Of a stretch of 64,000 nucleotides of DNA, positions 10,757 to 64,000 are shown piece by piece; the first letter of the stretch is position 1; every line of letters starts with the position of its first letter. The notes beneath the pieces were generated by a model. The model was not told where the DNA came from. It was given only the letters and a program-made list of their open reading frames with translations, and did no database searches. A program made the translations under genes and the position numbers. The stretch lies in sequence record NZ_CP043850.1. One strand, given 5' to 3'. This DNA is from a plasmid.

Positions 10757-10847
10757 GGCACGGGGGAAGGCGCGCCGGTTGTCGAGATGCAGCGAAGAGT
10801 TCACACGACGCGCGGTGAACTCTTCGCATATCAGGCGGGATCCGGTC
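10757..10847 (+). repeat. cassette-boundary repeat, A form, copy 1 (core GTTGTCGAGATGCAGCGAAGAGTTCACACGACGCGCGGTGAACTCTTCG, then GGCGGGATCCGGT); holds a perfect 12-bp stem / 10-nt loop hairpin at 10793..10826
   Basis: shared with loci at 30527, 33038, 49788 and, inverted, at 32879 and 51134. Confidence 0.8.
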
Positions 10848-11067
10848 GGCGTGAAATCTGGGTGTCCCGGTGGGCGCTCCCGCGCGCCCCAGGGCCCGCC
10901 AGAAACGTACGGGCGGCTGCCGCTCTGGCGGGTCGGTTGTGGCGAGTCATGTGGCGGGCGGACAGGGTCGGATGTGGCGCGCACGGCGCATGGCGGGGTT
11001 GTCAACGTCGGCCGAATATTGACCCCTTATCGTCGTTGAATTTTGACCCCCTCGAATTGATGTGTTG

Positions 11068-16004: not shown

Positions 16005-16181
16005 GATGAGTCCTTTGTCATGTCGTCGAACGAGCAAGCCCGCGCGACTGGTGGGTAGTTTGCGCCTCGACGATGTGGCGACTGCATTCACGGTAACTTT
16101 CGGGCGCCCGCGATGTCAACGTCGGCCGAATATTGACCCCTTATCGTCGTTGAATTTTGACCCCCTCGAATTGATGTGTTG

Positions 16182-16961: not shown

Positions 16962-18220
16962 CAGAGGACCTCACCGGTTCGAGGATCGACAGGGAAATCG
17001 ACGCCGAACAACTCGTCGTAGTCGGGCAGTTCCCGAAACACCACGCTGGCCGCTGGCTGCCCGCGATGGTGCAGTCGTTCTCGGTCGCGTTTCGCGGCGC
17101 TGAACGTGGAGCGCAGCCCCCTCGCGATCTCGACGTGGACAGGGTCGATGACGGTCGCGTGTTTCGCCCAACAGCGTTCGTGGTCAGCGACGGTGCGGCC
17201 ATCGCAGATCACGATCACTCGTGTCAGCGTGGCCGTCACATCCACCAGCCGCCCAATCACGCGAGGGTCAACGGAGTAGTCGTTGGCATCGATGCGGACG
17301 TAGTAGTCCCGCGCCAATCGGACCCGGTTTCGCAGCCCCGTCACCGGCGGCAGCGGCGGCAACACGGTCATCGCCTGCAGATCCCGCTCCACCACGTCGA
17401 TAGGTCGCCCGCCCAGCGAGCGGATCGTGCGGGAGTTCGCCCGCGGGAGCCACTCCGCGAGTTGGCTGTTGAAACTGTCCGGTGACGCGAACGACCGCCC
17501 GGGCAGGAACGATGTCTCCATGTACTGGTTGTTGCGTTCGGTCATGCCCTTGAACTCCGGATCCCGCGGAGGGGCGAGCACGATCCTCGTCGCCAACGTT
17601 CCCGCGAACGCGGCCGCGGCCTGCGTGACAGTCCCCTTCCCCCCGATCGCGGCCTCACGATCCCAGACGAGCGTCTTCGAGACCCGCCCGACACGAGAGA
17701 TCAGCTGCCACATCCCCGCGACCAGATCGCCCGCCTGCCGGGACGGGAGCATCACCGCGGACAGGAACCGGGAGAACGTCAACGTCATCACGAGCACCGG
17801 CAGCATCAACGCTTGCCCATGCCCGACAGGGATCCGCGGCTCCGGGAACCACAGATCCATCTGCGCGCTCTCGCCAGGAAGATGAATCAGACGATCCGCG
17901 GGATCGACCCCGGCATACTCCGGACGAATCGTCCGGATCCGATCCTTCAGAATCGTGATCGAGTGTTCCCACCCGATCCGCTCCGCGATCACCGTCGCCG
18001 GCATCCTCGCATCCACCACCAAGAGCTTGCGGATCTCGGGCTCCGCAGCGTCAACGAGTGACCCTTTCCCTGCCCGCTGATACGACGGCGGCGTCTCTGA
18101 CGCCAACGCCGACCGCACCGTATTTCGCGCCACACCGAGCCGACGCACGATCTCCTTGATCGACACGCCCTCCGCCCGATGCAACCGCCTGATCTCTGCC
18201 CACTGTTCCAAATTGATCAC
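16961..18220 (-). CDS. istA: IS21-family transposase IstA
   Basis: 419 aa; identical to copy 1. Confidence 0.9.
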   Translation of the reverse strand: MINLEQWAEIRRLHRAEGVSIKEIVRRLGVARNTVRSALASETPPSYQRAGKGSLVDAAEPEIRKLLVVDARMPATVIAERIGWEHSITILKDRIRTIRPEYAGVDPADRLIHLPGESAQMDLWFPEPRIPVGHGQALMLPVLVMTLTFSRFLSAVMLPSRQAGDLVAGMWQLISRVGRVSKTLVWDREAAIGGKGTVTQAAAAFAGTLATRIVLAPPRDPEFKGMTERNNQYMETSFLPGRSFASPDSFNSQLAEWLPRANSRTIRSLGGRPIDVVERDLQAMTVLPPLPPVTGLRNRVRLARDYYVRIDANDYSVDPRVIGRLVDVTATLTRVIVICDGRTVADHERCWAKHATVIDPVHVEIARGLRSTFSAAKRDRERLHHRGQPAASVVFRELPDYDELFGVDFPVDPRTGEVL

Positions 18221-18365
18221 CCTCCAAAGGATGCCCGGAAGGGGTCAAAATTCCCCGACGCTCAGGGGTCAGTATTCACGCGTCGTCGACAGGGGTCCCT
18301 CGCCACAAACGACCGAATCTGTCGAGTCAGTTGCAGAGCGCCGGGGTCAAGGGAACGACTCCGCC

Positions 18366-30526: not shown

Positions 30527-30580
30527 CTGTCAAGACGCGGCGAAGATCGCACGCGACTCGTGAAGGGCAGTTCCTTGGAG
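30527..30580 (+). repeat. cassette-boundary repeat, A form, degenerate copy (CTGTCAAGACGCGGCGAAGATCGCACGCGACTCGTGAAGGGCAGTTCCTTGGAG)
   Basis: aligns to the A core at 10778, 33038 and 49788. Confidence 0.55.
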
Positions 30581-32800: not shown

Positions 32801-32878
32801 TCAGTGAATCTCCAGTTCTATGTGCGGTTCCGGGAGTTCGTCAATGACACCCGGGTCTACAGAGCGTCAAGCGTTCAG

Positions 32879-32998
32879 GCGCTTCCTGGCGTATGAAACA
32901 TATTTGCGCGTTTCTGAAATCTTCACTGCATCTCGACAGGCGCTTCCTGGCGTATGAAACATATTTGCGCGTTTCTGAAATCTTCACTGCATCTCGAC
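32879..32998 (-). repeat. cassette-boundary repeat, B form: exact 60-bp tandem duplication (GGCGCTTCCTGGCGTATGAAACATATTTGCGCGTTTCTGAAATCTTCACTGCATCTCGACA, twice)
   Basis: reverse complement shares the core TGTCGAGATGCAG(T/C)GAAGATTTCA with the A-form copies. Confidence 0.85.
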
Positions 32999-33012: not shown

Positions 33013-33090
33013 AGGGCACAAGGGAAGGCGAGGTGGTGTTGTAGAGATGCAGCGAAGATTTCACACGACACGCGGTGAACCCTTCTCGGA
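33013..33090 (+). repeat. cassette-boundary repeat, A form, copy 3, facing the B tandem across ~40 bp
   Basis: GGGCACAAGGGAAGGCG..GTTGTAGAGATGCAGCGAAGATTTCACACGACACGCGGTGAACCCTTCTCGGAG. Confidence 0.8.
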
Positions 33091-33462
33091 GCAAAACCTT
33101 CAGCGGGGTCTGTGAAATGTACCCCTCGGCCGCCGAGAGAGTCATCAACGCCCAGGGTCAGTACATCTAGCCGACCACCCTGACCGCTGCGTCGCGGACA
33201 TGTCCCAGGCGCGCGCCTGACAGTGCGCTCATGCCGGGAAGGCGATTCTGAGGCCGTGCCACCTGCCGCTCGACTTCCGCCTCAGGCACCGGGTGCAGAG
33301 GAGTCACCTCTCGTGGTCGACGGCGGGCTATCAGTCGGGGATGCTCTCGCGTGCAGCCTTGCGAATCTGTGCTGAAGCGTGCTGCGAGGCAAAGGTCAGC
33401 AGTTGAGAAACAGCTGGCGGGCGTGAAGCAGGAACTGGTGACAGCTGATCGTTAGTGCCGGG

Positions 33463-37258: not shown

Positions 37259-37332
37259 TGGAGGTGCCTACGGGATTCGAACCCGTGTAAACGGTTTTGC
37301 AGGCCGCTGCCTATCCTCTCGGCCAAGGCACC
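37259..37332 (-). tRNA. tRNA-Cys (anticodon GCA), CCA encoded
   Basis: 5'-GGTGCCT..CTGCAAA..ACGGGTTCGAATCCCGT AGGCACC T CCA-3' folds as a cloverleaf; anticodon loop CT-GCA-AA. Confidence 0.85.
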
Positions 37333-49371: not shown

Positions 49372-49787
49372 GTGTACTAGTCAAACGTATACCCATGTCA
49401 GGTATTCCGCAAGGAGGGAGGCGATCGTGTGAGCTGCATTGCGCAAGTGCTGCAAACAATGGTTGGAGCGTCCGAGGTGTGCCTTGTGGTGCACCGATGC
49501 TGCGGGGCGATCCGCTGGGTTCTGGCGCTGCGCGTCGGAGAGTAGTGACCCCTCGGCTCATCAGAACCGTGGACTGCCTTGCCGCATCGACGAAGGCAGC
49601 GAAGACTGGTACGAAACCGACTCGCGCCCAGACCCGTCAGTGAGTGGGGTCAACGCTCGGGAAGCGCGGTGCCGGAGACCCCAGGCAGGGGTCTCTGACG
49701 GTGACCCTGGTGAAGGCGCGCGGGCGCAGCAGCACGGGGACAGTCAGTGGCCGGGCCGATCCCGTGGAGGACGTCGTCACCCTCGGG

Positions 49788-49856
49788 GTTGTCGAGATGC
49801 AGCAAAGACTGCACGCGACTCGCCGTGAACCGTTCGGAGAGGGGGCGGGATCCGGT
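49788..49856 (+). repeat. cassette-boundary repeat, A form, copy 4 (GTTGTCGAGATGCAGCAAAGACTGCACGCGACTCGCCGTGAACCGTTCGGAGAGGGGGCGGGATCCGGT)
   Basis: ~75 bp homology with copy 1, including the GGCGGGATCCGGT tail. Confidence 0.75.
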
Positions 49857-51064: not shown

Positions 51065-51133
51065 GGGCTGACTGGAGAACCACGAGCTGCACCCGGACAG
51101 GGTTCAACTGTCAATACCTAAGTGGCTCGTGGT

Positions 51134-51206
51134 CGTATGAAACATATTTGCGCGTTTGTGAAATCTTCGCTGCATCTCGACAGGTGTCCATGCCAGAACC
51201 GGCGCC
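51134..51206 (-). repeat. cassette-boundary repeat, B form, copy 5 (CGTATGAAACATATTTGCGCGTTTGTGAAATCTTCGCTGCATCTCGACA..CCGGCGCC)
   Basis: inverted relative to the A copy at 49788; reverse complement shares the core and the GGCGCCGGTT segment with copy 1. Confidence 0.8.
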
Positions 51207-51477
51207 AGTCTGAGGCGTGATCTCCCGCCCCATCCCTGAGGGAAATGAGGCAGGAAGTCGCGGGATATTTCCCTCTGGAACGGGCTGGCCTGGAGGTGGT
51301 CGCTTGCGTCCGTTCGACTGCGTCGCTCAGCCGCAAGCGTACCCCCCATGTCAAGCGCGTGGAAGGGGGTGGGACCGGATCTGCCCTGGACGAGGGACAT
51401 CACGGCGAGGATCGGGCCTTCTGGCTGGTGAGGGGCCCGTGCCCCGCGGTCATCGTCAAGAAGTGGAAGGGCAGAAG

Positions 51478-53640
51478 ATGAGCACCTCCGTGCAAGCCCC
51501 TGTGGGGCACGTGGAAGTTGACGCCGGCATTCGCCGCCTTGTCCCGCAGCCCCAGCCGATGCGGTACGTGGGGGTGGCCACTGGGCTGGGAGCGTGCGCG
51601 TGCGTGGGGATGGGCATCCTCTCGATGGGCGACCCGTCGGCGGCGTATGGGATCGGTGGAGCTTCGGCCGTGGTCTCGGCCGGAGCTCTCGTGGCGGGGG
51701 AGCGCTCGCGGCAGCGCGCGGAGATCGCGGATCACCTCACCGAACAGGTCTGCCCGGCGATGGCGCTGGGGCGTCCGGCGCGGGCCGCGGTTCGGCTCTC
51801 GAAGTGGTCGGGTGGGTTCGTGGGGCAGCCGGCGAGGGTGCAGCTGATCTATCACGCCTCGGTGGTGCCGGACCTGGAGTGGCTGGGGAAGGTGGTCCAC
51901 ATCGTGCAGACCAGCCTGGGCGGCCGGTACACCGTGGCCAAGCACCACGAGCGCAAGCACAGGTTGTGGTTGGAGATGGTGCCCGAGGAGGCCGGTCAGG
52001 GGCCCGAGCAGGCGCCGGTGGTGGAGCGGACCACCACGGTGGTTCAGGAGCTGCTGGGGGAGTCCGCGCGGGTGCAGGTCGATCTGGACGAGGACGGGCA
52101 GGCCCAGCGGATCACGGTGCGCCACAACCAGGGCACCAACATGGCCTTCGGGAACAAGCGCCAGAGGGTGGAACGGGTGATGGCCACGCGCATCCCGGGG
52201 GACTGGGTGCCGAAGTGGGATCTGCAGAACGATGTGGTCGAGTTCGTCACCCGGGTGCCGATGCCTACCCTGGTGCTGCCGCCTACGGCGCACTCCCCGC
52301 TGGCCACCACCCATGAGGACTACTCGGATTTCCAGATCCCGCTGGGCATCGACGAAGACAACGAGCAGCTGTCCTGGACCCCGCGGAAACAGCCCCACGC
52401 CGTGGTGGTAGGCACGACGGGCTCTGGAAAAACCGTGGTGCAGCACAACGTGGTGCAGCGGGTGACCCAGGCCGGCTGGCGGGTCTGGATTCTCGACGGC
52501 AAGCGCATCGAGTTCATCGGATTCCGGCACTGGCCGAACGTGGAGCGGATCGCCTCCCGCATCGAGCACCAGGTGAAGATGATCTACGACGCCCACCAGC
52601 TGATGGAGGAGCGGTACGGGCTGATCGAACAGGGCGAAGCCACTGTCGCTGACTTCGAGCCCCTGGTGCTCGTGATCGACGAGGCCACCACGTTCCTCGA
52701 AGGCGCGGACCGCTGGTGGAAGGAGGTCAAGCCCAAGGGCGGCACGGCCAAGGCCCCCTGCCTCGGGTTGATCGCCGACATCGCCCGCCTGGGCCGCTCA
52801 GCGAAGATCCACATGCTCATCGGACTGCAGCGCCCGGACACCGCGTTCATCTCCGGTGAGATGCGCGACAACCTGTCCATGCGCGTGGCCATGAGCAGGC
52901 TCAGCCCCGACGGGGCCAAGATGATGTGGGAGTCCTACGCCATCGGCACCGCCATCCCCCGGCACATCAAGGGCCGGGGTATGGCGATGAACGCCGCCGG
53001 CGTTCCGGTGCAGATCCAGACCATCTACGCCCCCAACCCCGACCCGGGCTCTCCCGACTTCGACCCGGCCAAGACCGCCGCGGTGCGCCCGCGCACCCTG
53101 CTGCACAAGAAGATGCTCGTGGAGATCCTCGAACCGGCCCCGGATCTCGACGATGAGGTCCAGCCGCTGGGGTACTGGGACTACATGCAGGCCCGGGTGT
53201 ACGAGGACCCTGACCAGCCCGAGGTGCAGGGCCCTGCGATTGCTGGGGCTCAGCCGCCGGCCGCCGCCCTGGCGGCGCTGCGCTCTTTGAACACCGGCCC
53301 GGCGGCAGTGTCCGAGCAGCAGGAGGGGGGGTCGAGCTCGCCGGTGATCGCCGAGCGAGCTGCTGCTGCGGTTGATCCCGGGACGTACCAGGGCGCCGAG
53401 GACGACGACTTCGAGGGCTATGGGGAGGAGTCGGTCTGCGCAGCTGGCGAGCTCGAGCCGGGGGACCTGGCCCAGGTCGATCCCGACGGCGGGTGGGTGG
53501 TGATCACCGAGTACCCCGAGGCCGACGGGGACGACGTCTATCTGGAGTACACCGACCGGTTCACCGGCGAACCGGCGACCTGCACCATCTCCGCCCAGGA
53601 GATGGTGCCGACCATGCATGTGATGCAGGAGGAGAACTGA
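51478..53640 (+). CDS. FtsK/SpoIIIE-family DNA translocase (TcpA/TraB-like coupling protein)
   Basis: start MSTSVQAPVGH; Walker A VVVGTTGSGKT; Walker B LVLVIDEATTF. Confidence 0.85.
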   Translation: MSTSVQAPVGHVEVDAGIRRLVPQPQPMRYVGVATGLGACACVGMGILSMGDPSAAYGIGGASAVVSAGALVAGERSRQRAEIADHLTEQVCPAMALGRPARAAVRLSKWSGGFVGQPARVQLIYHASVVPDLEWLGKVVHIVQTSLGGRYTVAKHHERKHRLWLEMVPEEAGQGPEQAPVVERTTTVVQELLGESARVQVDLDEDGQAQRITVRHNQGTNMAFGNKRQRVERVMATRIPGDWVPKWDLQNDVVEFVTRVPMPTLVLPPTAHSPLATTHEDYSDFQIPLGIDEDNEQLSWTPRKQPHAVVVGTTGSGKTVVQHNVVQRVTQAGWRVWILDGKRIEFIGFRHWPNVERIASRIEHQVKMIYDAHQLMEERYGLIEQGEATVADFEPLVLVIDEATTFLEGADRWWKEVKPKGGTAKAPCLGLIADIARLGRSAKIHMLIGLQRPDTAFISGEMRDNLSMRVAMSRLSPDGAKMMWESYAIGTAIPRHIKGRGMAMNAAGVPVQIQTIYAPNPDPGSPDFDPAKTAAVRPRTLLHKKMLVEILEPAPDLDDEVQPLGYWDYMQARVYEDPDQPEVQGPAIAGAQPPAAALAALRSLNTGPAAVSEQQEGGSSSPVIAERAAAAVDPGTYQGAEDDDFEGYGEESVCAAGELEPGDLAQVDPDGGWVVITEYPEADGDDVYLEYTDRFTGEPATCTISAQEMVPTMHVMQEEN

Positions 53641-54045: not shown

Positions 54046-55278
54046 ATGTGCAGGGCGGCGGGATCACCGGGGGCACCGCATGGCAGGCGGTGCAACCTCT
54101 CCCAGCACAAGCGGGACGCTGCGCAGCAGCGGCGTCGGGAGAACCGGGCCATCGCCCAGCAGATCAACCGCTGGGCCAAGGACGCCGGCCGGGGAGACGA
54201 GCTCGCAGCGCTGCAGGCCGCGCGCAAGCCGGTGAACGAGATCAAGGAGTGGGCGGAGGCTGCAGGGGCGCCGACGGCGGTGTACGCCCGGGCTGCGGCG
54301 CCGGCGAAGAAGGGCTGGGCTGCCCGGGCCGAGAAGGTGGACGCCGCGGCGCAGGCGGTCCCCTCGGCACAACGGCCGCAGCCGCAGCGACCGGCGCCCA
54401 TCGCCCGCAAGAAGGACCCGGCCGTCCAGACGCTCTCGCCTGAAGAGCGCGCCGAGGCGGCACGCCGGAGTCTGGAGGCGCAGGAGCGAGAGGAGCTGAC
54501 GGGCCAGTTCGGTGCGGAAGAGGCTGAGCGCATCCAGCGGTTGCGTGCTCGGCAGGGCGCAGACGCCCAGGAGCAGCAGCTGCTGGCCACACACGAGGCG
54601 CACGAGAACACCTCCAGCTACCTCGGAGGCGTCAACGACGTGAAGCAGCTGCGGTACAACGACGGCACGATCGGCTACTTCAAGGGCTACGACGACATCG
54701 ACTCCAGCACCGCCCTCGCCTACGGGCACAACAGCTCCTACCTGCAGCCCACCCATGAGGTGGCCGCCTCCCAGTTCGCACAAGCCCTGGGGCCGCGGTA
54801 CGGGGCGCTGGTGCCGCCGGCCGTGATCGCCGAGTACGACGGGCAGTGGGGGTCGATCTCCTACGGGGTGCCCGGCCAGCCGGTGCGCACCATGCCCCAG
54901 CTGAGCAAGCTCAACGAGCACTCCTCCCAGGCCAGCGACCTCGCCTTCTTCGACTGCCTGATCGGACAAGTCGACCGCCACGGCGGCAACGTGCTGATGG
55001 ACCGCCGCGGGATCAGCGCCATCGACCACGGCTTCGCCTTCACCGACGGCGTCGGCGGGGTCAACGCCTCCCTGTTCGTCATGGCCCGATCAAAGAACAG
55101 CGCCGACGCCCGTCTCACCCCGGAGGAGCGCCAGGTCCTGCAGCGGTTCCTGGACTCCGGCGACGGCCTGGGCCTACGCGGAACGATCCAGGATGACCGC
55201 TTTTTCGAGGTCCGCCGGCGGGCCAAGCTCATGCTGACCAAGGGGAGGGTCTTCGCGCTCGAAGAGCTCTACAGATAA
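54046..55278 (+). CDS. protein with a C-terminal PI3/PI4-kinase-like catalytic region (DRHGGN catalytic loop and IDHG activation-loop motif) and an Ala/Arg/Glu-rich N-terminal half
   Basis: CLIGQVDRHGGNVLMD...ISAIDHGFAFTD seen in the translation. Confidence 0.5.
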   Translation: MCRAAGSPGAPHGRRCNLSQHKRDAAQQRRRENRAIAQQINRWAKDAGRGDELAALQAARKPVNEIKEWAEAAGAPTAVYARAAAPAKKGWAARAEKVDAAAQAVPSAQRPQPQRPAPIARKKDPAVQTLSPEERAEAARRSLEAQEREELTGQFGAEEAERIQRLRARQGADAQEQQLLATHEAHENTSSYLGGVNDVKQLRYNDGTIGYFKGYDDIDSSTALAYGHNSSYLQPTHEVAASQFAQALGPRYGALVPPAVIAEYDGQWGSISYGVPGQPVRTMPQLSKLNEHSSQASDLAFFDCLIGQVDRHGGNVLMDRRGISAIDHGFAFTDGVGGVNASLFVMARSKNSADARLTPEERQVLQRFLDSGDGLGLRGTIQDDRFFEVRRRAKLMLTKGRVFALEELYR

Positions 55279-55308: not shown

Positions 55309-55563
55309 ATGCCCACCATCACCATCCGCGAGCTAGACGCCCACGGCGACGCGCAAGAGGTCGCCTGGGTTCACATCGACGGCGACCAGGTCACCATCAA
55401 GGACCCCGAGGGCCACCTTGACACCTCTGTGCCCACCCCCGTCATCGACGACCTCGGCCGCGGCGACCGTCGCCGCGTTCGTTTCGAGGAGGACCAGAAG
55501 CTGTGGGCCTGGAACCTGCCCTACCTGCTGCGCGGGCCCTACCTGCTGGCCACTCGCGCCTGA
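55309..55563 (+). CDS. small hypothetical protein
   Basis: 84-aa ORF; SD-like AAGGAGG upstream. Confidence 0.5.
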   Translation: MPTITIRELDAHGDAQEVAWVHIDGDQVTIKDPEGHLDTSVPTPVIDDLGRGDRRRVRFEEDQKLWAWNLPYLLRGPYLLATRA

Positions 55564-55688
55564 GCCCTCGGCAAGGAGGGGACGTGTCGCCAAGATGCGA
55601 CGCTTGCACCGCTCGCGCCAGACATGTATAGTTGGACATGTCAGCGGGGCCCAGCAGGGGCCCTGCACCCCAGTGAAGGGAGCCGGCC

Positions 55689-55931: not shown

Positions 55932-56105
55932 GCCTCACGGGAGGGGGCCGCCGCCCAGCGGCCCTCTCCGCCCGGTTAGACGGAACCGAAAAGAGCACCC
56001 GTCGAAGACTTGCGCACCCGCATAACAGGTGTGTATGGTTAGACATGCCAAAGGAACCCGGGCGGGAACCGGCGGCACCGACAACCGAACAGAGAACGGA
56101 GCCGC

Positions 56106-56981: not shown

Positions 56982-57123
56982 ACTGGCATCGGCTGGAGGC
57001 CGGCGCGGCCTCGTGGGAGACTGAACGCACCCCGCCCGGGTTCAGCACGAGGGCCCCGATCCTGATGGATCGGGGCCCTCGTGCGTCATGGTGGCGACAC
57101 CATCGGCGTACGGGGACGTGTCG

Positions 57124-57507
57124 TCAAGACGAGCCGGCAGCCTGTCGCCGCATCACCGCGCCGCCAGGGCGTCGCCACGTCGGGGGATCAGCGCGCCCAC
57201 AGCCATCGTCAGCCTCGGCAGCGCTGTCATCGACTGCAGCCACCAAGGAACGGAATCCACCGGGGAAGACGTCGCCAAGGCAGAAGAGAATCAGCACGGC
57301 GCCCATCGTCTTCTCCCCAGCCGGGGCAGATCCAGTGCGCCGCAGCTCACGAACAGCGAGCACAGTCGGGGCCAGGGCCGCCCAAGCCAGCACTTTCCAC
57401 GCCAGATCAGGGGCGGCATCCACCACGCCCGGGGTGTGCCGCAACACGGTCAAGACGGCCACGATGACCGACAGGATGGAGAGCAGGGTCTGGATGCGAA
57501 TCTTCAT
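57124..57507 (-). CDS. small integral membrane protein
   Basis: 127 aa; three hydrophobic helices. Confidence 0.45.
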   Translation of the reverse strand: MKIRIQTLLSILSVIVAVLTVLRHTPGVVDAAPDLAWKVLAWAALAPTVLAVRELRRTGSAPAGEKTMGAVLILFCLGDVFPGGFRSLVAAVDDSAAEADDGCGRADPPTWRRPGGAVMRRQAAGSS

Positions 57508-57730
57508 GTGGTCCTCTCAGGGCTCAGTGCGTCTACTTACGTTGTGTTCCGGGATGGAGGCGTGGCGCACCACGAAACGGGACAGCTCTGCCCAGGCATC
57601 GGCAGGGTGGACCGCACCGCCGGCCCAGCAATCCCGAGACGAAGAACGCTGATCCTCAGCTGCCGGCAGTGCCAGCAGGCGGGGACATGCCGCCAAGACG
57701 ACAGCGACGCCAGCCGAAGACGCGCCCGGG

Positions 57731-58687
57731 GTGGATACGATCAGGGCCCCACTGGAGCTGGAGAAGGACGCCATGACCCACGCTGTACTGACTGCCCTGC
57801 GCGACCGCGTCATCGACGACACCCAGCCCCTGCCGGGACTGTTGCGCACCTGCCTGATGCTCGGCGCCGAGACCGGCTCCCAGAGCCTGCGGGAGTGGGC
57901 GCGCTATGAGCTCAACGGCTACACCGCCGACGCCGAACTACCTCCCTACCGGCGCATCTATGCCGGGATGCGCATCTCCTACGTCAGCGGCTACAACGTG
58001 GTCAGCGGCCAGGCCTACGCCTGGTACAACTTGCCGAGCAAAGCGCGGGAGATCGTCCCCGAGCAACTGGAACTGCGCGGCCCGCTGGCCGAACTCGAGC
58101 AGATGGCCGCCCAGGACTCCGCCAGCTTCGGAACTGGCCCACTGAGCGTCGCCCTGCAGATCATCAACAAGGACCTGCCCTTCGGCCAACAAGTCCACCA
58201 GCTGGCCTACTCCGTCCCCGGTGCCACCCTCATAGGCATCGTCGACCGCATCCGCACGACTCTCGTCGAACTCGTCGCCGACCTCACCGCCGACACCCCC
58301 CTCGACCAGCTTCCCAGCAGCGCCACCATCGACGCCGCCGTCAAGACCCATGTCGGCGTGCAGTACAACACCACCATCCACGCCCCCGCCGGCCCCCTCG
58401 CCATCGGCGACGGCGCCCACGCCCAGACCACCGTCGACGACCTCGTCCGCGCGCTCGCGGCCCTGCGCACCATGGCGGAGCAGGAGGGAGAGCAGGAGAT
58501 CCTAGAGGCGGTCGACGACCTCCGGCAGACACTCGAAGAGGGTGAACCCGCCCCCGGACCCGTGGCCGAGAAGACCAGCCGACTGCGCAAGGCGGCGGCC
58601 AACGTGGGCAGCGCGGCCCTGGGCTCCGCAGTCACGGGTTTCGTGGAGACCGTCACCACCATGGCTTTCGGCGGCCTCTTCGGCTGA
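57731..58687 (+). CDS. hypothetical protein (318 aa; start may be the internal MTHAV at 57773)
   Basis: protein-like ORF, no recognised motif. Confidence 0.45.
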   Translation: MDTIRAPLELEKDAMTHAVLTALRDRVIDDTQPLPGLLRTCLMLGAETGSQSLREWARYELNGYTADAELPPYRRIYAGMRISYVSGYNVVSGQAYAWYNLPSKAREIVPEQLELRGPLAELEQMAAQDSASFGTGPLSVALQIINKDLPFGQQVHQLAYSVPGATLIGIVDRIRTTLVELVADLTADTPLDQLPSSATIDAAVKTHVGVQYNTTIHAPAGPLAIGDGAHAQTTVDDLVRALAALRTMAEQEGEQEILEAVDDLRQTLEEGEPAPGPVAEKTSRLRKAAANVGSAALGSAVTGFVETVTTMAFGGLFG

Positions 58688-58866
58688 GCACCCCGCGCCG
58701 GCGGCGGCCAGGCCTCACGGGGGGCCTGGCACGGAAGCGGCTGAGCAGCAGGTAGAGCCCGGGCCCGGGTCCCCTCAGTGCCGCCGATGAGCGGGAGTGG
58801 GCCGCGAGCGCGGGTGGGGATGACGATGGGCGCGGACCGTGTGGTCCGCGCCCGTCGGGTACGTGC

Positions 58867-59112
58867 TCAGATCTGAGTGTGGTCGAGCTCGTGAGCGGTC
58901 AGAGCATCCAGGGTCCTGACCAGGTCGGGGAAGAGGGTGGTCAGCACCTGGATGGAGCGGGGGCCCTTGGGGTGCTCGGGGAGGGAGCGCCAGTGGCGTG
59001 CCACGGTGTGAGCGTGGCGGCCGCGGCGGGTGTAGAAGGCCTGGGCGTGCTGGTAGCCGGCCTTGTAGCCCTCGCTGTAGTCCGAGGCCGTGGTGTGCTG
59101 CTCCATGAGCAA
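58867..59112 (-). CDS. small hypothetical protein
   Basis: 81-aa ORF. Confidence 0.35.
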   Translation of the reverse strand: MLMEQHTTASDYSEGYKAGYQHAQAFYTRRGRHAHTVARHWRSLPEHPKGPRSIQVLTTLFPDLVRTLDALTAHELDHTQI

Positions 59113-59222
59113 CCTCCTTGGGTTGGGGTGCAGGGGGCCTGGACATGGCGGGAGGGCGCAGGCAGCCCGCGGGTGGGTGGGGAGCGCGCGGAGGGGGTGT
59201 TCGTGGGCCTAGCCTCGGGGCT

Positions 59223-60056
59223 ATGAGTGCGGATTGGTGGGTTCCCCTGGTGGGGGCGTTGGTTGGCGCTGTATCGGCGTTTGTGGTGTCGAGGAGGACG
59301 TTGAAGGGACAGGCCGACCAAGCGGCGGTGCAGCGGCTCGAGGCGGCCCTGGCGGAGCTGATTCTGGGAGTCCAGGCGCTGTACGACCCCCGGTCGTACA
59401 ACTCGAAGGAGGCGCCGCCGGTCCCAGATGAGCCGCGGGTGCGCCTGCTGTTGTTGACCGGCTCCGAGGAGCTCGACGAGCAGCTGAGGTGGGTGTGCGT
59501 CGGATGGCTCAGCCGTTGGCGGGTGATGAACGATTTCGCCTGGGACCTTGCTGGGGAGACCGGGGATGAGGACATGCGCGCACTGGGGCACAAGCTGCGC
59601 CGCCTGGCCGGAGAGTTGGTGCCGGCACTGCGCAAGCTCAAGTCCCCGAAGCCGAAGCACGTGAGGGCGACGCTACGTGCCCTGGGGGAGTGGCGGGGCC
59701 GTCTGGAGGACCTGGAGGCCAAACACCGCAATGACGCCGAACTGTGGTCCTTTCAGGTCAACTCGGTCCCCCTCAATGAGGAGACGGAGGCGGCCCTGGA
59801 CAGCCGGGAGGGACTGAGTGAGATGACCGCGCTGGCTTGCAAGCGTGAGCTGAACGTGACCGAGCAGGAGGAGCTGAATCGCCGTCGCCGGGCGGTGCGG
59901 TTGCTGGACCTCCAGGAGTGGGGGTGGGCCAATCCGTTGAGTCCGGCAGAGGTGGCCGAACGGGAGGGGCTAGAGCCGGTTGTTGAGGAGGACTGGGTGG
60001 TGCAGCGCGAAGTGAATGTCCGGCGGCGTGCGGGGCAGGCTAAGCCGGAGGGTTAG
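59223..60056 (+). CDS. hypothetical membrane-anchored protein (start MSADWWVPLVGALVGAVSAFVV)
   Basis: in the frame of ORF 59118..60056; N-terminal TM helix. Confidence 0.45.
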   Translation: MSADWWVPLVGALVGAVSAFVVSRRTLKGQADQAAVQRLEAALAELILGVQALYDPRSYNSKEAPPVPDEPRVRLLLLTGSEELDEQLRWVCVGWLSRWRVMNDFAWDLAGETGDEDMRALGHKLRRLAGELVPALRKLKSPKPKHVRATLRALGEWRGRLEDLEAKHRNDAELWSFQVNSVPLNEETEAALDSREGLSEMTALACKRELNVTEQEELNRRRRAVRLLDLQEWGWANPLSPAEVAEREGLEPVVEEDWVVQREVNVRRRAGQAKPEG

Positions 60057-60107: not shown

Positions 60108-60170
60108 CGAGCGCGGCTCGGGCGGGGACGTGTCGTGGAGATGGCGGGCCGGCTGCAGCACCCCGCAGCG
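60108..60170 (+). repeat. upstream-module repeat, copy a (GCGAGCGCGGCTCGGGCGGGGACGTGTCGTGGAGATGGCGGGCCGGCTGCAGC...)
   Basis: shares GAGCGCGG..GGGGACGTGTCG..GCCGG with four more copies. Confidence 0.7.
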
Positions 60171-60200
60171 TCGGCTGGGCCTGGCCCACGGGAGGGAGGC

Positions 60201-60806
60201 TCAGCGGCAGCGACGGCCCGCGACGAAAGAACCGATCACGAGCGCTGGCCATGCGGCGTCCCGCAGCGTCAATCGCCTGCGTTCCTCCCGGGGTGTGGAG
60301 TCCTGGGGAGCTGCCACGATGGTGGGGGGTGCGGCCTGCTCCGCATTTGGAGGGCTGGGGAGGAGGGCGCGGAAGAGGACAAATAAGCCCAGGGCGCATA
60401 TAGACAAGGTTTTCTGCCAGTTATTGGGGTTTGGAACTGGGTCCGTCCCAAGAGCCGCGAGCGCTGTCAGGAGCAGAGCGAGAGGGAGCAGGATCATCAT
60501 CGTGAAGAGCAGGGCCTTACGTCGGAGGTTCTTCGTCTTGCCGGCCTGCATGTCCGCAATGAGGCGATCCCAGGCGGGGAAGCCGGATAGAGCGAAGAGG
60601 CCGACGGCGGCGATCAGGCCCAGCCAGAAGTTGGCTGGGTCGGTCGGCATCTGGATGACCTCTACGGGCATGGGGGTTGGGGTGACCTCTACGGGCATGG
60701 GATCCATGGGCCACATGATGCCCTGGTGCACGTCGGCAGTCGGCCTCGGTGAGGGGGCCGCGGAGGCACTCCTGGAGCCGAGAGTGCTGGAGATGGTCTG
60801 CGACAT
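60201..60806 (-). CDS. hypothetical membrane protein (start MSQTISSTLG; could extend to the GTG at 61052)
   Basis: repeat copy b lies directly upstream of this start. Confidence 0.45.
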   Translation of the reverse strand: MSQTISSTLGSRSASAAPSPRPTADVHQGIMWPMDPMPVEVTPTPMPVEVIQMPTDPANFWLGLIAAVGLFALSGFPAWDRLIADMQAGKTKNLRRKALLFTMMILLPLALLLTALAALGTDPVPNPNNWQKTLSICALGLFVLFRALLPSPPNAEQAAPPTIVAAPQDSTPREERRRLTLRDAAWPALVIGSFVAGRRCR

Positions 60807-60817
60807 GAGCCGGCCCG

Positions 60818-60900
60818 CGAGCGCGGGCAGGGCGGGGACGTGTCGCTGAGGGCCGGTTGCAGCTGCCGGCTGCGGGAGGGGGGCCATTGAGTTGGCGCAG
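60818..60900 (+). repeat. upstream-module repeat, copy b (~100 bp near-identical to copy c)
   Basis: GCGAGCGCGGGCAGGGCGGGGACGTGTCGCTGAGGGCCGGTTGCAGCTGCCGGCTGCGG. Confidence 0.75.
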
Positions 60901-61095
60901 CCCCGGAGGCGCGCGATCAGCTTGGAACGGGGCAGGCCTGCTTGCGGGCCGTCGTCGGCGCCTGGCGGGGGTCCGAGGGGTGGCTGCCCGTCCGTCGTAA
61001 CGGGGGGATGCCGAGAGTCTACGAGGCTGGGAGGCGTGCCGGTCTTCCGCACCCCCGGCTCGATCGTCAGGCTCCCCCGGGCCGCCGCGGGGCCC

Positions 61096-61190
61096 GCGAG
61101 CGCGGTCAGGGCGGGGACGTGTCGCCGAGGGCCGGCTGCAGCTGCCGGCTGCGGCGCCGGCTGGGTGTCGTCGAGCTGGCGCAGCCCCCA
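61096..61190 (+). repeat. upstream-module repeat, copy c
   Basis: GCGAGCGCGGTCAGGGCGGGGACGTGTCGCCGAGGGCCGGCTGCAGCTGCCGGCTGCGG. Confidence 0.75.
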
Positions 61191-61223
61191 CCGGGGCGGC
61201 GGGGGCTGCGCGGGTGCTCGCGG

Positions 61224-61712
61224 TCAGTGGGGCAGGGGGATGGGGGCAGGGGGCAGGACGGCGGGCAGGGCGTTGGTCAGGGCGAGGGACTCGCGGAGGT
61301 CGATGTGGTTGATGATCCGGTGGAAGGTGTGCGGGGTCCATGCGGCGGCGAGCTCGGCTGCGGGGTCGTGGGCGGGCCGGTAGAGGGTGAGCACCTGGTG
61401 GGCAAGGTTCGCGGGGACGTCGCCGCCGTTGGGGCCGGTGAGGATCATGGGGCCGAGTACGACGGCGCGCGCCTCGGGCAAGGTGCGGGCGAGGAAGACG
61501 GTGGCCTCGGCGTTCACGGCGTCCTCGTCGATCAGCTCGGACTGCCGGGCGCAGGTGTGCGCGGTCCACGTGGGCGTGGTCAGGGCCTGGGAGCGCCCGT
61601 AGAGGGCGGCGTCGATCTGTCCGGGCGCGGTGATGGTCACGTAGCTCGGGCGCGGGAGCGGGGCGTTCTCGGGGTCGGCGGGGCGGGCGGGGAAGAGGAT
61701 GGCGACGGGCAT
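61224..61712 (-). CDS. hypothetical protein (start MPVAILFP), immediately downstream of repeat copy d
   Basis: 162-aa ORF. Confidence 0.5.
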   Translation of the reverse strand: MPVAILFPARPADPENAPLPRPSYVTITAPGQIDAALYGRSQALTTPTWTAHTCARQSELIDEDAVNAEATVFLARTLPEARAVVLGPMILTGPNGGDVPANLAHQVLTLYRPAHDPAAELAAAWTPHTFHRIINHIDLRESLALTNALPAVLPPAPIPLPH

Positions 61713-61730
61713 GGGTGCGGCCTTTCTGGG

Positions 61731-61810
61731 AGCGCGGTCAGGAGGGGGACGTGTCGTGGAGAGCCGGCACCGGGGCCGGGGCGTTGCACGTGGCGTACAG
61801 CGCTCCGGCC
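61731..61810 (+). repeat. upstream-module repeat, copy d (with imperfect hairpin)
   Basis: GAGCGCGGTCAGGAGGGGGACGTGTCGTGGAGAGCCGGCACCGGGGCCGGGGCGTTGCACGTGGCGTACAGCGCTCCGGCC. Confidence 0.75.
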
Positions 61811-61834
61811 CATGTCGCCGAGTCGGCGGCGGAC

Positions 61835-62209
61835 TCAGGCGTCCGAGCTTGCGGCCTGGAGCAGCTCCAGGTCCTCGGGCTCGCTCAGGTGCTGGGTGAG
61901 CTCGACGGGAAGGGGATTGGCGGTGAGCTTCGGGCGGCAGGCCAGCAGCACCGGCCCGCGCAGGAACGTGTCCCAGTCCGTGCGTCCGTTGGCGGCGTGC
62001 GCGTTCAGGAACGCGGCGGCCTGGTGGTTGCGGTCCTCGGGGGTGTAGGCGCGGGGCTGGGGGTCGGTCCAGAAGTAGACCGTCCAGCCCTGGCCGTGTA
62101 CGGCGTCGAACTGGTCGCAGAAGAACGCCGAAAGGTCCTCGGGGCCGTCGAGTTCGAGCAGCTCGACGGGGTCGGCGGGGTCGGTGGGGAAGTGGATCAT
62201 CTGGGCCAT
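61835..62209 (-). CDS. hypothetical protein (start MAQMIHFPTDPADP), immediately downstream of repeat copy e
   Basis: in the frame of ORF 61835..62287. Confidence 0.5.
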   Translation of the reverse strand: MAQMIHFPTDPADPVELLELDGPEDLSAFFCDQFDAVHGQGWTVYFWTDPQPRAYTPEDRNHQAAAFLNAHAANGRTDWDTFLRGPVLLACRPKLTANPLPVELTQHLSEPEDLELLQAASSDA

Positions 62210-62227
62210 AGCGGGCACCTTCCAGGG

Positions 62228-62309
62228 AGCGCGGTCAAGAGGGGGACGTGTCGCGGAGAGCCGGCGGCCCGGGGCCGGGCGCTGCACACGCGGTGCAGCG
62301 CCCCGGCCC
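62228..62309 (+). repeat. upstream-module repeat, copy e, with an 11-bp-stem hairpin GGGCGCTGCAC-ACGCG-GTGCAGCGCCC
   Basis: GAGCGCGGTCAAGAGGGGGACGTGTCGCGGAGAGCCGGCGGCCCGGGGCCGGGCGCTGCACACGCGGTGCAGCGCCCCGGCC. Confidence 0.75.
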
Positions 62310-62379
62310 GTGTCGCCGAGTCCCCGACACGGCGGGGGCCGCGTGCTCGCGCTCGCGGCCCCCGCGCGGGCGGGGTCGG

Positions 62380-63341
62380 TCAGCCCCGGGAGGGCTTCCA
62401 GGCGTGGGCCCGGTCAGCGGCAATGGCGGCCACCGGCGTTGCAGTGGTCAGAGCAGACACGGCGCGCACATGCGCGTGCCCCGGCGTGCACGCGGCGGCC
62501 TGGCCCAGCCGATCGGCGGCCTGCGTACCCTGGCCACGGAGCCAGGCCACGTAGGCCAGCACGGCCAGCGCCCCGGCGGCGGCCTCGCGCGGCCCCATGG
62601 CCACGGCGGCATTGAGCACCGTCTCCGCTTCCTCCGTGGCCGCCCAGTCCAGCCCGTGCGGGAACGTCCCCGTCAGGAAGTCCACCGTCTCCAGCCGCTG
62701 GGGCGCGGTCACGGCCACCATGGCCGCGTGCAGGTACTCGGGGTCCGGGTGATCCAGGGTCGCCAGCACGACGGCGGCGGCGTTGCGGTCCGCCCGATCC
62801 CGCAGAAGACGGGACATGCCACGCCCCAGCACGCGGATGTCAGTGAGGAAGTCCCCCATGCGCTCGCGGGCGGCGGTGATCAGCGGAGCCAGCGCGGCGG
62901 TGTCCTGCGGCGCGGCGGTCGGGTGCTGGACCGGCGCGCCCCCCTCGACAGCCACGGTCAGCCCGAGGTCAGAGGCCCCCGGCGCGTAGGGTTCGCTCTC
63001 ACCCGTGCTCAGGTTGGTGCAGTTCTTCCCGTCCACCGTCACCAGCGTCTCGACGGGCAACCCGTGATCGACCATGGCGGCCTCCACCTCGAACCAGCGC
63101 AGGGCGCGGTCCTCGGGGCCGTATCCGATCAGGATGGCGCGCTCATGGCCGCTGTCACGCAGGGACTGGGCCAGAAACGTGCCCAGGAAGCCGGCAGGGG
63201 CGGCATCGTCGACGCGCATCACCGCACCCAGCCGGGTGCCGGTCATGCCGATGGCCACCAGGGAATCAGCGGGGGTCTTGCGCAGGGCGGCGGCCGCGTA
63301 GTCGGCCAGCGCGAGCGGAGAAGAGGCCTTGAGGGTCTTCA
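62380..63341 (-). CDS. hypothetical protein (start MKTLKASSPLALADYAAAAL; 320 aa)
   Basis: C-terminal 320 codons of ORF 62380..63951 are protein-like; the upstream part is a Pro/Arg-rich frame artefact. Confidence 0.5.
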
Positions 63342-63439
63342 TGGTGTCCTCCTTGGGGACTGGGGGTGCGGGGCCCCTGATGGGTCCTGCGGGGGTGTGG
63401 TGGGCGGTGCCCTCCAACGTGTCTAACCATACACGTTTG

Positions 63440-63615
63440 GGGCGGGGGTGTCTACTGGGGGTGTGGCGCAGTTTATGGCGTGGTTTATTGCGTAGAGTGT
63501 GGCGTGTGTGTGGTGTGGGGTGTGGTGCGGCGTCCCGTGCGCCCGGTCGTGCCGTCGGGCCGCTGCCCGGCCCGGGCCGCCGTCGGGCCGGTCGGGCCGT
63601 CGGGGCCGGGCGCGC
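63440..63615. repeat. GT-rich block (GTGTGGCG / GTGTGGTG / GTGGTTTATTGCG) followed by four GTCGGGCCG-type direct repeats
   Basis: read in sequence; non-coding. Confidence 0.6.
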
Positions 63616-64000
63616 GTGTGCTCGGCCTCCCGGGGGGTGCTCGGAGTGCGCCGGCCCTCGGCGGGGCCGCGTCGGGGGTTGGGGGAGGGCGGGGCGGCTG
63701 TGTGGGCGTGTGCGGGCCGTTCGTGGGGCCGGTGGGCGTGAGTGCCGGATCGGTGGTGCCCGCGCCTGAGGGGGCGTGTGGGCCGTCCTGGCGGGGGTGC
63801 CCTTGTTCGGCCCGAACCGGCCCGGGGGAGTGTTAGCGCCAGCCCCACCCCCACCGTCCCAGGCCCTGCCGTCTGGCAGCTCGCCCGGCGGCGCGTCAGC
63901 GCCCGCCGTGCCCCGCTGTACGCCGGGGCACTCAACGGGAGGGGCACCCAACCGGCGCGCGGAGCGCGCCCAGGCCCCGCGTCAGCGGGGCGGTCGGCCC

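Follow-up and report, generated by a model that had tools for sequence, protein, structure and literature searches.

Five similar modules set between small genes near the right end of this linear plasmid are genuine copies of an undescribed 19-base box with a hairpin, placed at gene boundaries. The window, by which we mean the whole stretch of 64,000 nt analysed here, covers the rightmost ~64 kb of a pJD12/pCW.Ay-family linear plasmid with terminal proteins, and stops ~90 nt before the telomere. A putative plasmid-encoded, sequence-specific DNA-binding regulator most likely recognizes the box, which is not itself a promoter. We tentatively read the module as a whole as a lineage-specific cis-element that would combine operator-like or roadblock (‘stoperator’-like) sites with gene-boundary hairpins. 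The features are collected in Table 1.

Table 1. Boxes, hairpins, promoter-like site and array genes in the last 9 kb of the window
Feature	Position	Strand	Details
Solo box	55578..55596	+	15 nt past stop of gene 55309-55563
Solo box	57112..57130	+	abuts stop codon of minus-strand ORF 57124-57507
Decayed module (GAGCGCGCGGAGGGGGTGTTCGTGG)	59175..59203	+	upstream of minus-strand gene 58867-59106
Copy a	60109..60142	+	arm GAGCGCGG 60109-60116, 7-nt spacer, 19-nt box GGGGACGTGTCGTGGAGAT 60124-60142
GC-rich hairpin directly 3' of box a	60147..60176	+	fold of 60136-60203
Membrane-protein gene	60201..60806	-	last gene of array
Copy b	60819..60852	+	arm and box, core 60834-60845
Copy c	61098..61131	+	arm and box, core 61113-61124
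Small gene, no known family	61224..61712	-	third-codon-position GC 0.96
Copy d	61730..61763	+	arm and box, core 61745-61756; 18 nt from ATG 61712
Hairpin	61773..61811		between box d and stop of gene 61835-62209
Small gene, no known family	61835..62209	-	third-codon-position GC 0.94
Copy e	62227..62260	+	arm and box, core 62242-62253; 18 nt from ATG 62209
Two hairpins, degenerate inverted core, right outer arm CGCGCTCGCGG (62348-62358)	62254..62375		
DUF4192 gene	62380..63342	-	first gene inward from telomere
Sigma-70-like site TAGACA-N17-TATGGT	63426..63454	-	upstream of DUF4192 gene

The pattern GAGCGCGG-N7-GGGGACGTGTCG has exactly five matches in the window, all on the + strand and beginning at the starts given for copies a to e, against a chance expectation of 0.02 by shuffling, with no shuffle reaching five; the five same-orientation copies of the preliminary description are thus real. 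The 12-mer core GGGGACGTGTCG has two additional perfect + strand copies, at 55578 and 57112, both without the GAGCGCGG half and both outside the range first reported, bringing the window to seven perfect cores, all within its last 9 kb. Judged from its sequence, the module is a composite of an outer palindromic arm, an asymmetric box and a variable GC-rich hairpin. The arm, CCGCGAGCGCGG, is a hairpin-stem sequence common to the entire plasmid superfamily, the 19-bp box, GGGGACGTGTCG-YGGAGAT, is restricted to one plasmid lineage, and the hairpin differs in sequence between copies. Copies b and c are near-identical, as had been noted (95% identity over 64 nt and about 76% in the ~33 nt that follow a 5-nt indel). 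Between copies d and e, identity is 79-80% across ~150 nt, taking in a hairpin and, in the downstream gene, the first ~15 codons, and the N-termini of the products of 61224-61712 and 61835-62209 are weakly paralogous. The hairpins originally seen at d and e are also borne out. At e, the arms are 62254-62287/62293-62326, with a fold of -50.9 kcal/mol, and 62322-62346/62351-62375; with copy e, this region makes up a complete palindromic element of ~134 nt past the DUF4192 stop (62380).

The element is found in Micrococcus and Kocuria linear plasmids, with orthologous sites kept in Kocuria palustris. Plasmids of this kind are conjugative carriers of resistance and stress genes (PMC11707576). Exact cores number 13 in pJD12, where 0.04 would be expected, and 24 in pCW.Ay; non-coding sequence, 16% of pJD12, contains nine of its 13 cores (p=3e-5). 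The 12-nt core is unchanged across more than 50 distinct contexts (55+10), with A at position +15 conserved at 100%. Backbone proteins of the window and pJD12 are 48-78% identical, yet 7/7 window cores are perfect. Moreover, the orthologous element e has kept its box around a wholly different central hairpin sequence. Where elements are paired, both arms hold the same letters with no compensatory change, and the cores have no covariation. Boxes also occur singly, for example in the Tad operon, and solo boxes within coding sequence have no hairpin partner, so structure alone does not explain the conservation.

The box is also specific to its lineage. The related plasmid pLMV7 shares its backbone, promoters and CGCGAGCGC hairpins with the box-bearing plasmids, and contains no box, a pattern that fits a co-evolving protein/site pair. 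No core copy occurs in positions 1-55 kb of the window, in the 16-kb T4SS block or in cargo. Absence from 55 kb of the window and from pLMV7 argues against a general high-GC genome repeat. Searches of Rfam, at gathering and permissive thresholds, gave no match for the module, and a phage collection and viral contigs gave none for the box. A 14-base exact pattern had single chance matches only in genome contigs, among the matches listed, and the metagenome scan returned mostly chance matches, the true relatives being only those contigs with the N7 spacing. The box is not described in the papers on Micrococcus/Kocuria linear plasmids that were searched, nor did a literature search for the sequence itself find it. 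All intragenic boxes are read in a single frame, L-[HR]-D-T-S-P; a peptide-coding motif was rejected, since no other frame puts G/C at each third codon position and the majority of boxes are outside coding sequence. An in-frame TGA closes copies c, d and e.

The modules had been proposed as promoters of the genes that follow, possibly for leaderless transcripts, a reading we now consider very unlikely. In its favor, each of copies b, d and e is followed by a start codon 12-18 nt away, and all three have a single orientation (12 nt from the end of copy b to ATG 60806 of the minus-strand membrane-protein gene), and in relatives the module belongs to a promoter region. However, copies b-e and the sequence after them contain neither a -10 nor a -35, and not even a TANNNT lies between box and ATG in b, d or e. 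Furthermore, ribosome-binding sites (GGAAGG/GAAAGG) at both d and e contradict leaderless transcripts. Copy a has no downstream gene, lying between the convergent stops of a + strand gene (60056) and a - strand gene (60201), in agreement with the original observation that no minus-strand start codon is near it. The claim that start codons follow the modules holds for b, d and e and is in question for c, where the proposed GTG start at 61052 is doubtful. GC by codon position across 60807-61052 is 0.82/0.66/0.79, versus 0.72/0.45-0.53/0.94-0.96 in the two clear genes; this region has no codon-position signal, so that no genuine coding sequence encloses copy b, contrary to the longer reading of 60201..61052. 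Copy c itself is found ~100 nt beyond the stop of gene 61224-61712, followed by non-coding sequence, and has no downstream gene bearing coding signal. The first gene of the array, the DUF4192 gene, is without a module.

A sigma-70 scan of 55-64 kb returned a single site, 63454->63426 on the minus strand, embedded in the near-palindrome ACGTGTATGGTTAGACACGT. In relatives, the promoter TTGYGC-N17-TATGGT is a separate neighboring unit, 44 or 75 nt after the box, and this unit is absent from window copies b, d and e. Two other promoter types, an ECF-sigma promoter on the + strand (GGGAGC-N16-CGTGTC) and a T7-like promoter, were considered and set aside: the upstream half is present in some boxes only, neither a sigma-factor nor a polymerase gene was seen, and the transcripts would be antisense.

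The placement of the box relative to the promoters of relatives is what points to a regulator. Upstream of the conserved promoter's -10, forward boxes lie at 37/38 or 68 nt and reverse boxes at 44 or 75 nt. In both spacing classes the step is ~31 nt, or roughly three turns of the helix, across unrelated inserted sequences, an estimate based on two spacing pairs, and the classes hold in Micrococcus, Kocuria and the window lineage. Such phased steps indicate a DNA-bound regulator, and the fixed spacing fits a regulator-binding site. Within the window, box 55578 lies 37 nt upstream of the -10 of the promoter TTGCAC-N17-TATAGT, at a site whose orthologs are kept in Kocuria and Micrococcus plasmids, and at the position homologous to the decayed module, pJD12 and the relative L151 have an intact module plus promoter. 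The early suggestion of an operator survives in spirit through the fixed, phased promoter spacing of relatives; copies b, d and e are without that promoter.

The constraint on the box sequence and the positions, spacing classes and lineage specificity of the box are observed directly; binding of a protein to it and an effect of such binding on transcription are what we infer. In relatives, a box at fixed, helically phased distances upstream of a sigma-70-type promoter would have an operator or activator role. In the window, copies b-e are without the promoter part and the elements occupy short gaps of a co-oriented gene array that would be served by the single telomere-proximal promoter 63454->63426; here, bound protein and the adjacent hairpin may gate or block read-through into the next gene. 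The arrangement would be akin to the operator-plus-‘stoperator’ organization of Cluster A mycobacteriophages. That system has a ~13 bp asymmetric site in more than 20 copies per replicon and a monomeric immunity repressor of the L5 gp71 type. Like Cluster A stoperators, the box is asymmetric and of similar size, with 13 to more than 20 copies on an actinobacterial mobile replicon of 50-90 kb (exact cores: 13 in pJD12, 24 in pCW.Ay and 7 in the window). Its sites lie both in promoter regions, with fixed spacing classes to the -10, and in short intergenic gaps or gene boundaries (9/13 in pJD12), and its consensus is lineage-specific. Whereas the orientation of Cluster A sites correlates strictly with the direction of transcription, most box copies, though not all, have one orientation relative to it. 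The pattern matches the published description of stoperators as asymmetric, multi-copy, intergenic-plus-promoter sites (PMC9283540). In contrast to Cluster A, the sequences are unrelated (GGTGGMTGTCAAG versus GGGGACGTGTCGYGGAGAT), the replicon is a plasmid rather than a phage, most box copies have an adjacent hairpin, and box orientation tracks the replicon strand perfectly and transcription in about three quarters of contexts.

A search of ~35 proteins of the window and of pJD12/pCW.Ay against Pfam, PHROGs and NCBIfam identified no binding protein, nor, in the same set, a match to the Cluster A repressor (helix-turn-helix plus stoperator domain). A candidate binder is a 98-aa winged-helix MarR/ArsR-like protein, encoded between the Tad operon and parA, that is present in pJD12 and pCW.Ay, was undetected in pLMV7 and has no gene in the window. 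A BTAD-domain protein was rejected as the binder, having no DNA-binding domain by Pfam. Likewise, a 410-aa neighbor gene was dismissed as a relaxase, its conserved C-terminal DRHxxN and IDNG motifs being kinase-like; its product had no match among solved structures or NCBIfam families. Several points weigh against the regulator: the window copies have no promoter to regulate, box orientation relative to transcription is not uniform, no regulator model explains the confinement of YGGAGR boxes to one strand, and strong hairpins after stops could yield part of the pattern without any protein.

This last point leads to an alternative that we judge unlikely, in which the elements are purely structural gene-boundary palindromes, either factor-independent terminators or stabilizers of mRNA 3' ends, with the box as the base of a stem. 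Many elements lie 1-40 nt after stops (57112 and 55578 here; 36187, 44045 and 32762 in pJD12; 11638 in Kocuria), there is roughly one per array gene, and copy a sits between convergent genes. Paired elements fold as 74-nt hairpins of -48 to -57 kcal/mol, and in pLMV7 analogous hairpins with CGCGAGCGC stems stand between each stop and the next promoter. Yet no U-tract or T-run follows any element, and a terminator scan calls none at the modules; actinobacterial terminators without a U-tract do exist, so the hairpins may still terminate transcription. Box 57112 is found 27 nt after a terminator hairpin (57045-57084). Fold z-scores are modest (-2.3 to -2.6), and the cores without covariation and the unpartnered solo boxes, some in coding sequence, do not suit a stem. 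Post-stop boxes occur in both orientations, so that an RNA reader must recognize both strands, and efficient termination at the hairpins would silence the promoterless genes after b, d and e. Of the initial idea of a terminator between genes, the siting and the strong hairpins stand, and the U-tract is missing.

The gene content around the modules suggests another possibility, that they are junction repeats at whose conserved flanks gene-sized cassettes are exchanged, duplicated or lost. The route envisaged is homologous recombination, or an unknown site-specific or single-strand recombinase resembling that of integron attC sites. Relative to the window, L157 has an extra 1.47 kb adjoining module c, L151 is without 57163-58693 and without the + strand gene 59223-60056, and in L189 58912 is joined to 60951; these cassette-sized indels have junctions at or near modules. 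Additionally, homology between the window and pJD12 resumes exactly at module e (62227), and the b/c and d/e duplications take in the module. Nested conserved inverted ends, a variable hairpin and an asymmetric internal loop make up the anatomy of attC, which the module may resemble by analogy. As in integrons, the elements lie 3' of co-oriented promoterless small genes with one upstream promoter, and the genes between repeats vary among relatives. Unlike attC, however, the modules have no GTTRRRY/RYYYAAC (GTT/AAC) cores, no intI or attI was seen nearby, with no integrase among the genes scanned at 50-64 kb, and genes of relatives each have their own promoter after the element. Since homologous recombination will act on any conserved repeat, the junctions may be a by-product and not the function, and phased promoter spacing and solo boxes in the Tad operon are left unexplained. 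We find recombination improbable as the role of the module; what remains of that early proposal is the indel junctions, without the attC cores.

Other repeat families offer partial likenesses. REP/BIME elements are likewise imperfect palindromes at gene 3' ends, in many repeats and sometimes inverted pairs, with a short conserved head adjoining the stem. The box elements differ from them in that the GTAG head is absent and a REP-associated tyrosine transposase (RAYT) was not seen, in their limitation to one plasmid lineage, in a conserved part of 19 invariant nt and in intragenic copies without any palindrome; an HUH Y1 transposase appears in none of the annotation tables for pJD12, pCW.Ay and pLMV7. 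The box resembles DNA uptake sequences (Neisseria DUS, Haemophilus USS) in its invariant 12-nt core with semi-conserved flanks, in inverted pairs that form hairpins after genes, and in intragenic copies in one reading frame. A Tad pilus, too, is encoded by the box-bearing plasmid family; transformation in M. luteus depends on Tad/Flp pili (PMC4322843). In contrast to the dense, replicon- and genome-wide distribution of uptake sequences, the boxes are few, clustered, strand-polar and absent from cargo and the T4SS block, and this group of bacteria is not known for uptake specificity. An orientation skew is shared with the translocase-orienting motifs KOPS, SRS and TraB TRS, which are 8-bp, frequent and evenly spread, whereas the box is 19 bp, clustered and absent from long stretches. 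A TnpB guide or target was rejected, since TnpB is also present in box-free pLMV7 (78% identical) and the boxes are not beside element ends.

Without exception, boxes that carry the YGGAGR extension sit on the same strand throughout the replicon, regardless of gene direction: 12/12 in pJD12, 7/7 in the window, 8/8 in L202, 5/5 in L177, 5/5 in L240 and about 20 exact copies in pCW.Ay. By comparison, CGACACGTCCCC is on the sense strand in ~17 of 22 unique contexts family-wide and in 6/7 in the window, and promoter-upstream boxes are found in either orientation. Such polarity raises the prospect, which we rate as quite improbable, that the box is a strand-specific signal on single-stranded DNA, marking the strand handled unidirectionally in transfer or establishment, for example in end-first priming of the transferred strand from one telomere. 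Primase and single-strand initiation sites usually consist of a conserved single-strand motif followed by a hairpin, an anatomy that the box and its hairpin may parallel. The plasmid family encodes conjugation machinery of the type IV secretion (T4SS) kind. Transfer that begins with one end has been suggested for these plasmids (PMC11707576). On the other hand, the boxes are clustered and absent from the 16-kb T4SS block and cargo, they form only 3-4 independent clusters, which makes the polarity statistics weaker than raw counts imply, and no primase was identified. Folding has no convincing strand asymmetry: the bias in hairpin stability is 2.2 kcal/mol, explicable by G-richness, and none exists in paired elements.

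The least probable of the readings is that the boxes are dispersed centromere-like sites for a ParA/ribbon-helix-helix partition system. The sites are exact, multi-copy, intergenic as well as intragenic, and lineage-specific; ParA and its partner, a weak ribbon-helix-helix match, are only 34-41% identical between pJD12 and box-free pLMV7. However, no box is near parA, the site is single and asymmetric rather than an array of short repeats, and phased promoter spacing is not predicted.

Were the box only a terminator stem, the result would be an ordinary one, yet useful for annotating these plasmids. Because the strand polarity is strict, a unidirectional DNA process can be tested by experiment and, if the box does mark such a process, this would be the first sequence-level evidence on transfer of Micrococcales linear plasmids. 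For the putative regulator, a 19-bp box invariant amid diverging proteins is a bait with which to find it, and the box would define a plasmid regulon comprising telomere-proximal gene arrays, the Tad pilus operon and coupling-protein neighbors.

In the window, the composite repeat GAGCGCGG-N7-GGGGACGTGTCG occurs five times, always on the + strand (copies a to e, see table), against 0.02 copies expected by shuffling, and its 12-mer core has two further perfect copies (solo boxes). The repeat reported in the preliminary description is thus real, as is the near-identity claimed for b and c (95% across 64 nt); d and e share ~80% identity across about 150 nt, strong hairpin and first codons of the downstream gene included. 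Starts indeed follow closely, with an ATG 12-18 nt beyond the module end at b, d and e and ribosome-binding sites (GGAAGG/GAAAGG) at d and e. However, 60807-61052 lacks any codon-position signal, which places copy b outside any real gene, contrary to the proposed longer reading 60201..61052, and leaves the suggested GTG at 61052 doubtful; third-position GC is 0.94-0.96 in genes 61224-61712 and 61835-62209. A further, decayed module copy is also present, and the homologous position in the linear Micrococcus plasmid pJD12 and in contig L151 holds an intact module and promoter.

Features of the window
Feature	Position	Strand	Remarks
FtsK-type coupling protein gene	51217-53640		near repeats
Kinase-like protein gene	54046-55278	+	410 aa; Micrococcus/Kocuria only
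HTH_17 protein gene			near repeats
AbiTii-family (abortive infection) gene	57731-58687	+	
DUF4192 protein gene	62380-63342	minus	adjoins telomere
Conserved promoter/near-palindrome	63421-63440	minus	
Conserved promoter/near-palindrome	56031-56044	+	
Conserved promoter/near-palindrome	55624-55637	+	
Copies a, b, c, d, e	60109, 60819, 61098, 61730, 62227	+	
Solo boxes	55578, 57112	+	
Decayed module copy	59175-59203		upstream of minus-strand gene 58867-59106; + strand gene 59223-60056 starts 20 nt to its right
27-nt tandem repeat	60653-60701		in gene 60201-60806; encodes PMPVEVT twice
Border repeats	32876-32997, 51120-51180; 10777-10846, 33037-33106, 49787-49856, 30528-30560		
Perfect 300-nt direct repeat	11000-11299, 16114-16413		5114 nt apart
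Identical 428-aa ORFs	11847-13130, 16961-18244		accompany the direct repeat
tRNA-Cys gene	37259-37332	minus	in cargo region
Low-GC segment	24001-26000		GC 0.50, against 0.65-0.70 around
Subtelomeric region	63460-64000		75% GC, non-coding

The 55-64 kb segment aligns patchily (72-87% identity) with the terminal region of the linear Micrococcus plasmids pJD12, pLMA7, pLMV7 and pCW.Ay, whose T4SS block matches 3-10 kb; protein identity to pJD12 is 48-78%. Position 63975 aligns with pJD12 75896 (total 75989), so the window ends about 90 nt before a telomere. The subtelomeric region aligns with the final ~330 nt of pJD12, the alignment reaching to within 93 nt of its terminus, and the window therefore stops just before the protein-capped telomere. 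Linear plasmids of this family carry 5' terminal proteins and are conjugative (PMC2974207; PMC11707576). The 410-aa protein has a Cys/His-rich basic N-terminal region and PI3K/PI4K-like kinase motifs (DRHxxN, IDNG) in its C-terminal part; its family has just 33 members, on Micrococcus and Kocuria plasmids, and the gene, missing from pLMV7, invariably adjoins that of the FtsK-type coupling protein. The AbiTii gene, likewise near the repeats, keeps its position in Micrococcus and Kocuria plasmids and has been lost by deletion from L151, a close metagenomic relative.

The segment from 10 to 50 kb is cargo, made up of insertion sequences and metal-resistance genes. Two related ~60-70 nt repeat families, one including a perfect 61-nt tandem, lie where backbone blocks meet cargo and may be transposon ends or insertion hot-spots; one copy (51134-51183) has further matches in pJD12 and at three pCW.Ay sites. 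The 300-nt repeat and its twin ORFs suggest an insertion sequence present in duplicate on either side of ~3 kb, perhaps as a composite transposon, and the low-GC segment is a foreign island.

K-mer counts resolve the motif into two separate repeat families. The first, CCGCGAGCGCGG and its complement, lies on both strands and is the top-frequency 11-mer in pCW.Ay and pLMV7, forming in pLMV7 the stems of hairpins that separate every stop codon from the promoter after it. The second, GGGGACGTGTCG followed by YGGAGAT (the box), has an invariant core in 55 distinct contexts, with positions +13 to +16 conserved at 87-100%. Exact copies number 13 in pJD12 and 24 in pCW.Ay, and the box also occurs at the pLMA7 end, in a Kocuria palustris plasmid contig and in several metagenome contigs; pLMV7 has none with one mismatch allowed, and phage and viral collections gave no match. 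Neither the box sequence nor any such motif was found in papers on these linear plasmids. The box module is a real, previously undescribed, lineage-specific cis-element.

Comparisons among these sequences provide evidence for selection on the box itself. For example, the pJD12 cores compare with 0.04 expected, nine of the 13 lie in non-coding DNA, which is 16% of the plasmid (p=3e-5), and the window copies are perfect (7/7) despite a diverged backbone. In pCW.Ay and contig L216, convergent box pairs 62 nt apart fold as 74-nt hairpins (-48 to -57 kcal/mol), keeping identical letters in both arms and the GAGAT extension within an internal loop. Moreover, in the element after the DUF4192 stop, the window and the pJD12 lineage agree in outer arm and box, while their central hairpins are completely different in sequence. 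Solo boxes within Tad-operon genes have no hairpin partner. They read L-[HR]-D-T-S-P, and since only this frame has G/C at every third position, their frame preference needs no appeal to the peptide.

Along the minus strand, the order is promoter, DUF4192 gene, e, gene, d, gene, c, about 250 nt of non-coding DNA, b, gene, a and the convergent gene's stop. An element follows the last gene and none separates the promoter from the first; the elements therefore go with gene 3' ends or boundaries rather than starts, which explains the seemingly orphan copy a. Boxes likewise lie 1-40 nt past stop codons at both solo sites, at pJD12 36187, 44045 and 32762 and at Kocuria 11638. Such placement would suit purely structural terminator palindromes, a reading that is unlikely; a terminator scan found no U-tract after the module hairpins, and fold z-scores are modest. 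Additionally, the close metagenomic relatives L157, L151 and L189 differ from the window by gene-sized indels with junctions at or beside modules, and pJD12 homology resumes exactly at e. The modules are thus at least passive recombination points, and to that extent the recombination element first suggested stands; that recombination or cassette junctions are what the modules are, as these indels might suggest, is rather improbable.

Common to the plasmids is a conserved promoter, TTGYGC-N17-TATGGT, which lies within the near-palindrome ACGTGTATGGTTAGACACGT. This palindrome overlaps the -10, resembles an independent operator and has GACACGTC in common with the box. pCW.Ay (L125/L126) carries this promoter at both ends, upstream of the first gene at each telomere, and at about 14 more sites, and nearly all its right-end array genes have it upstream. 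Wherever a box lies upstream of a conserved-type promoter, the distance from core end to -10 is 37 nt (window), 38 nt (Kocuria), 68 nt (Micrococcus lineage) or, in one case, 82 nt for forward boxes, and 44 or 75 nt for reversed ones. Both classes step by ~31 nt, roughly three helical turns, through mutually unrelated inserted sequences, as would be expected of a DNA-bound protein held on one helix face relative to RNA polymerase. In the window, such a promoter (TTGCAC-N17-TATAGT) accompanies just one box, the solo copy at 55578. Copies b, d and e have no promoter unit and no TANNNT after them, and very little separates their modules from the ribosome-binding site and ATG; the one sigma-70-like site in a scan of 55-64 kb (63454->63426) lies upstream of the DUF4192 gene. 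Genuine promoters are therefore very unlikely. The anatomy given in the preliminary description holds and its promoter mechanism fails for this window, while its operator alternative, like the terminator and recombination ones, survives in part, favored by the phased spacing but not by the missing promoter unit.

We tentatively favor the best-supported reading, in which a putative plasmid-lineage-specific DNA-binding regulator recognizes the box. The regulator's targets would be promoters in related plasmids and, in the window, the promoterless gaps between cistrons, where it and the neighboring hairpin would jointly form a gate or roadblock. A candidate binder is a 98-aa winged-helix protein, encoded outside the window, in pJD12 and pCW.Ay and not detected in pLMV7. 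Among known systems, operator/stoperator control in Cluster A mycobacteriophages comes closest, its asymmetric site occurring in >20 copies at promoters and in short intergenic gaps (PMC9283540). However, the plasmid box does not belong to that family, differing in sequence and following the orientation rule only partly, and no Cluster A-related repressor was found among the plasmid proteins tested. Partition sites are hardly to be expected.

A simple regulator model does not account for the replicon-wide strand polarity. YGGAGR-extended boxes all lie on one strand per replicon (pJD12 12/12, window 7/7, L202 8/8, L177 5/5, L240 5/5, and all of about 20 exact copies in pCW.Ay). Gene direction switches between segments, promoter-upstream boxes are found in either orientation with respect to the promoter, and orientation agrees with transcription in only about 17/22 unique contexts. 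The shared strand would fit a transfer-linked, strand-polar signal in single-stranded DNA, but with the boxes grouped in just three or four clusters, the polarity carries less statistical weight than the raw counts suggest, and such a signal is decidedly improbable. The element resides in a little-studied plasmid family; its function is one we infer, and the invariant box, phased spacing and replicon-wide strand polarity are concrete, testable features.
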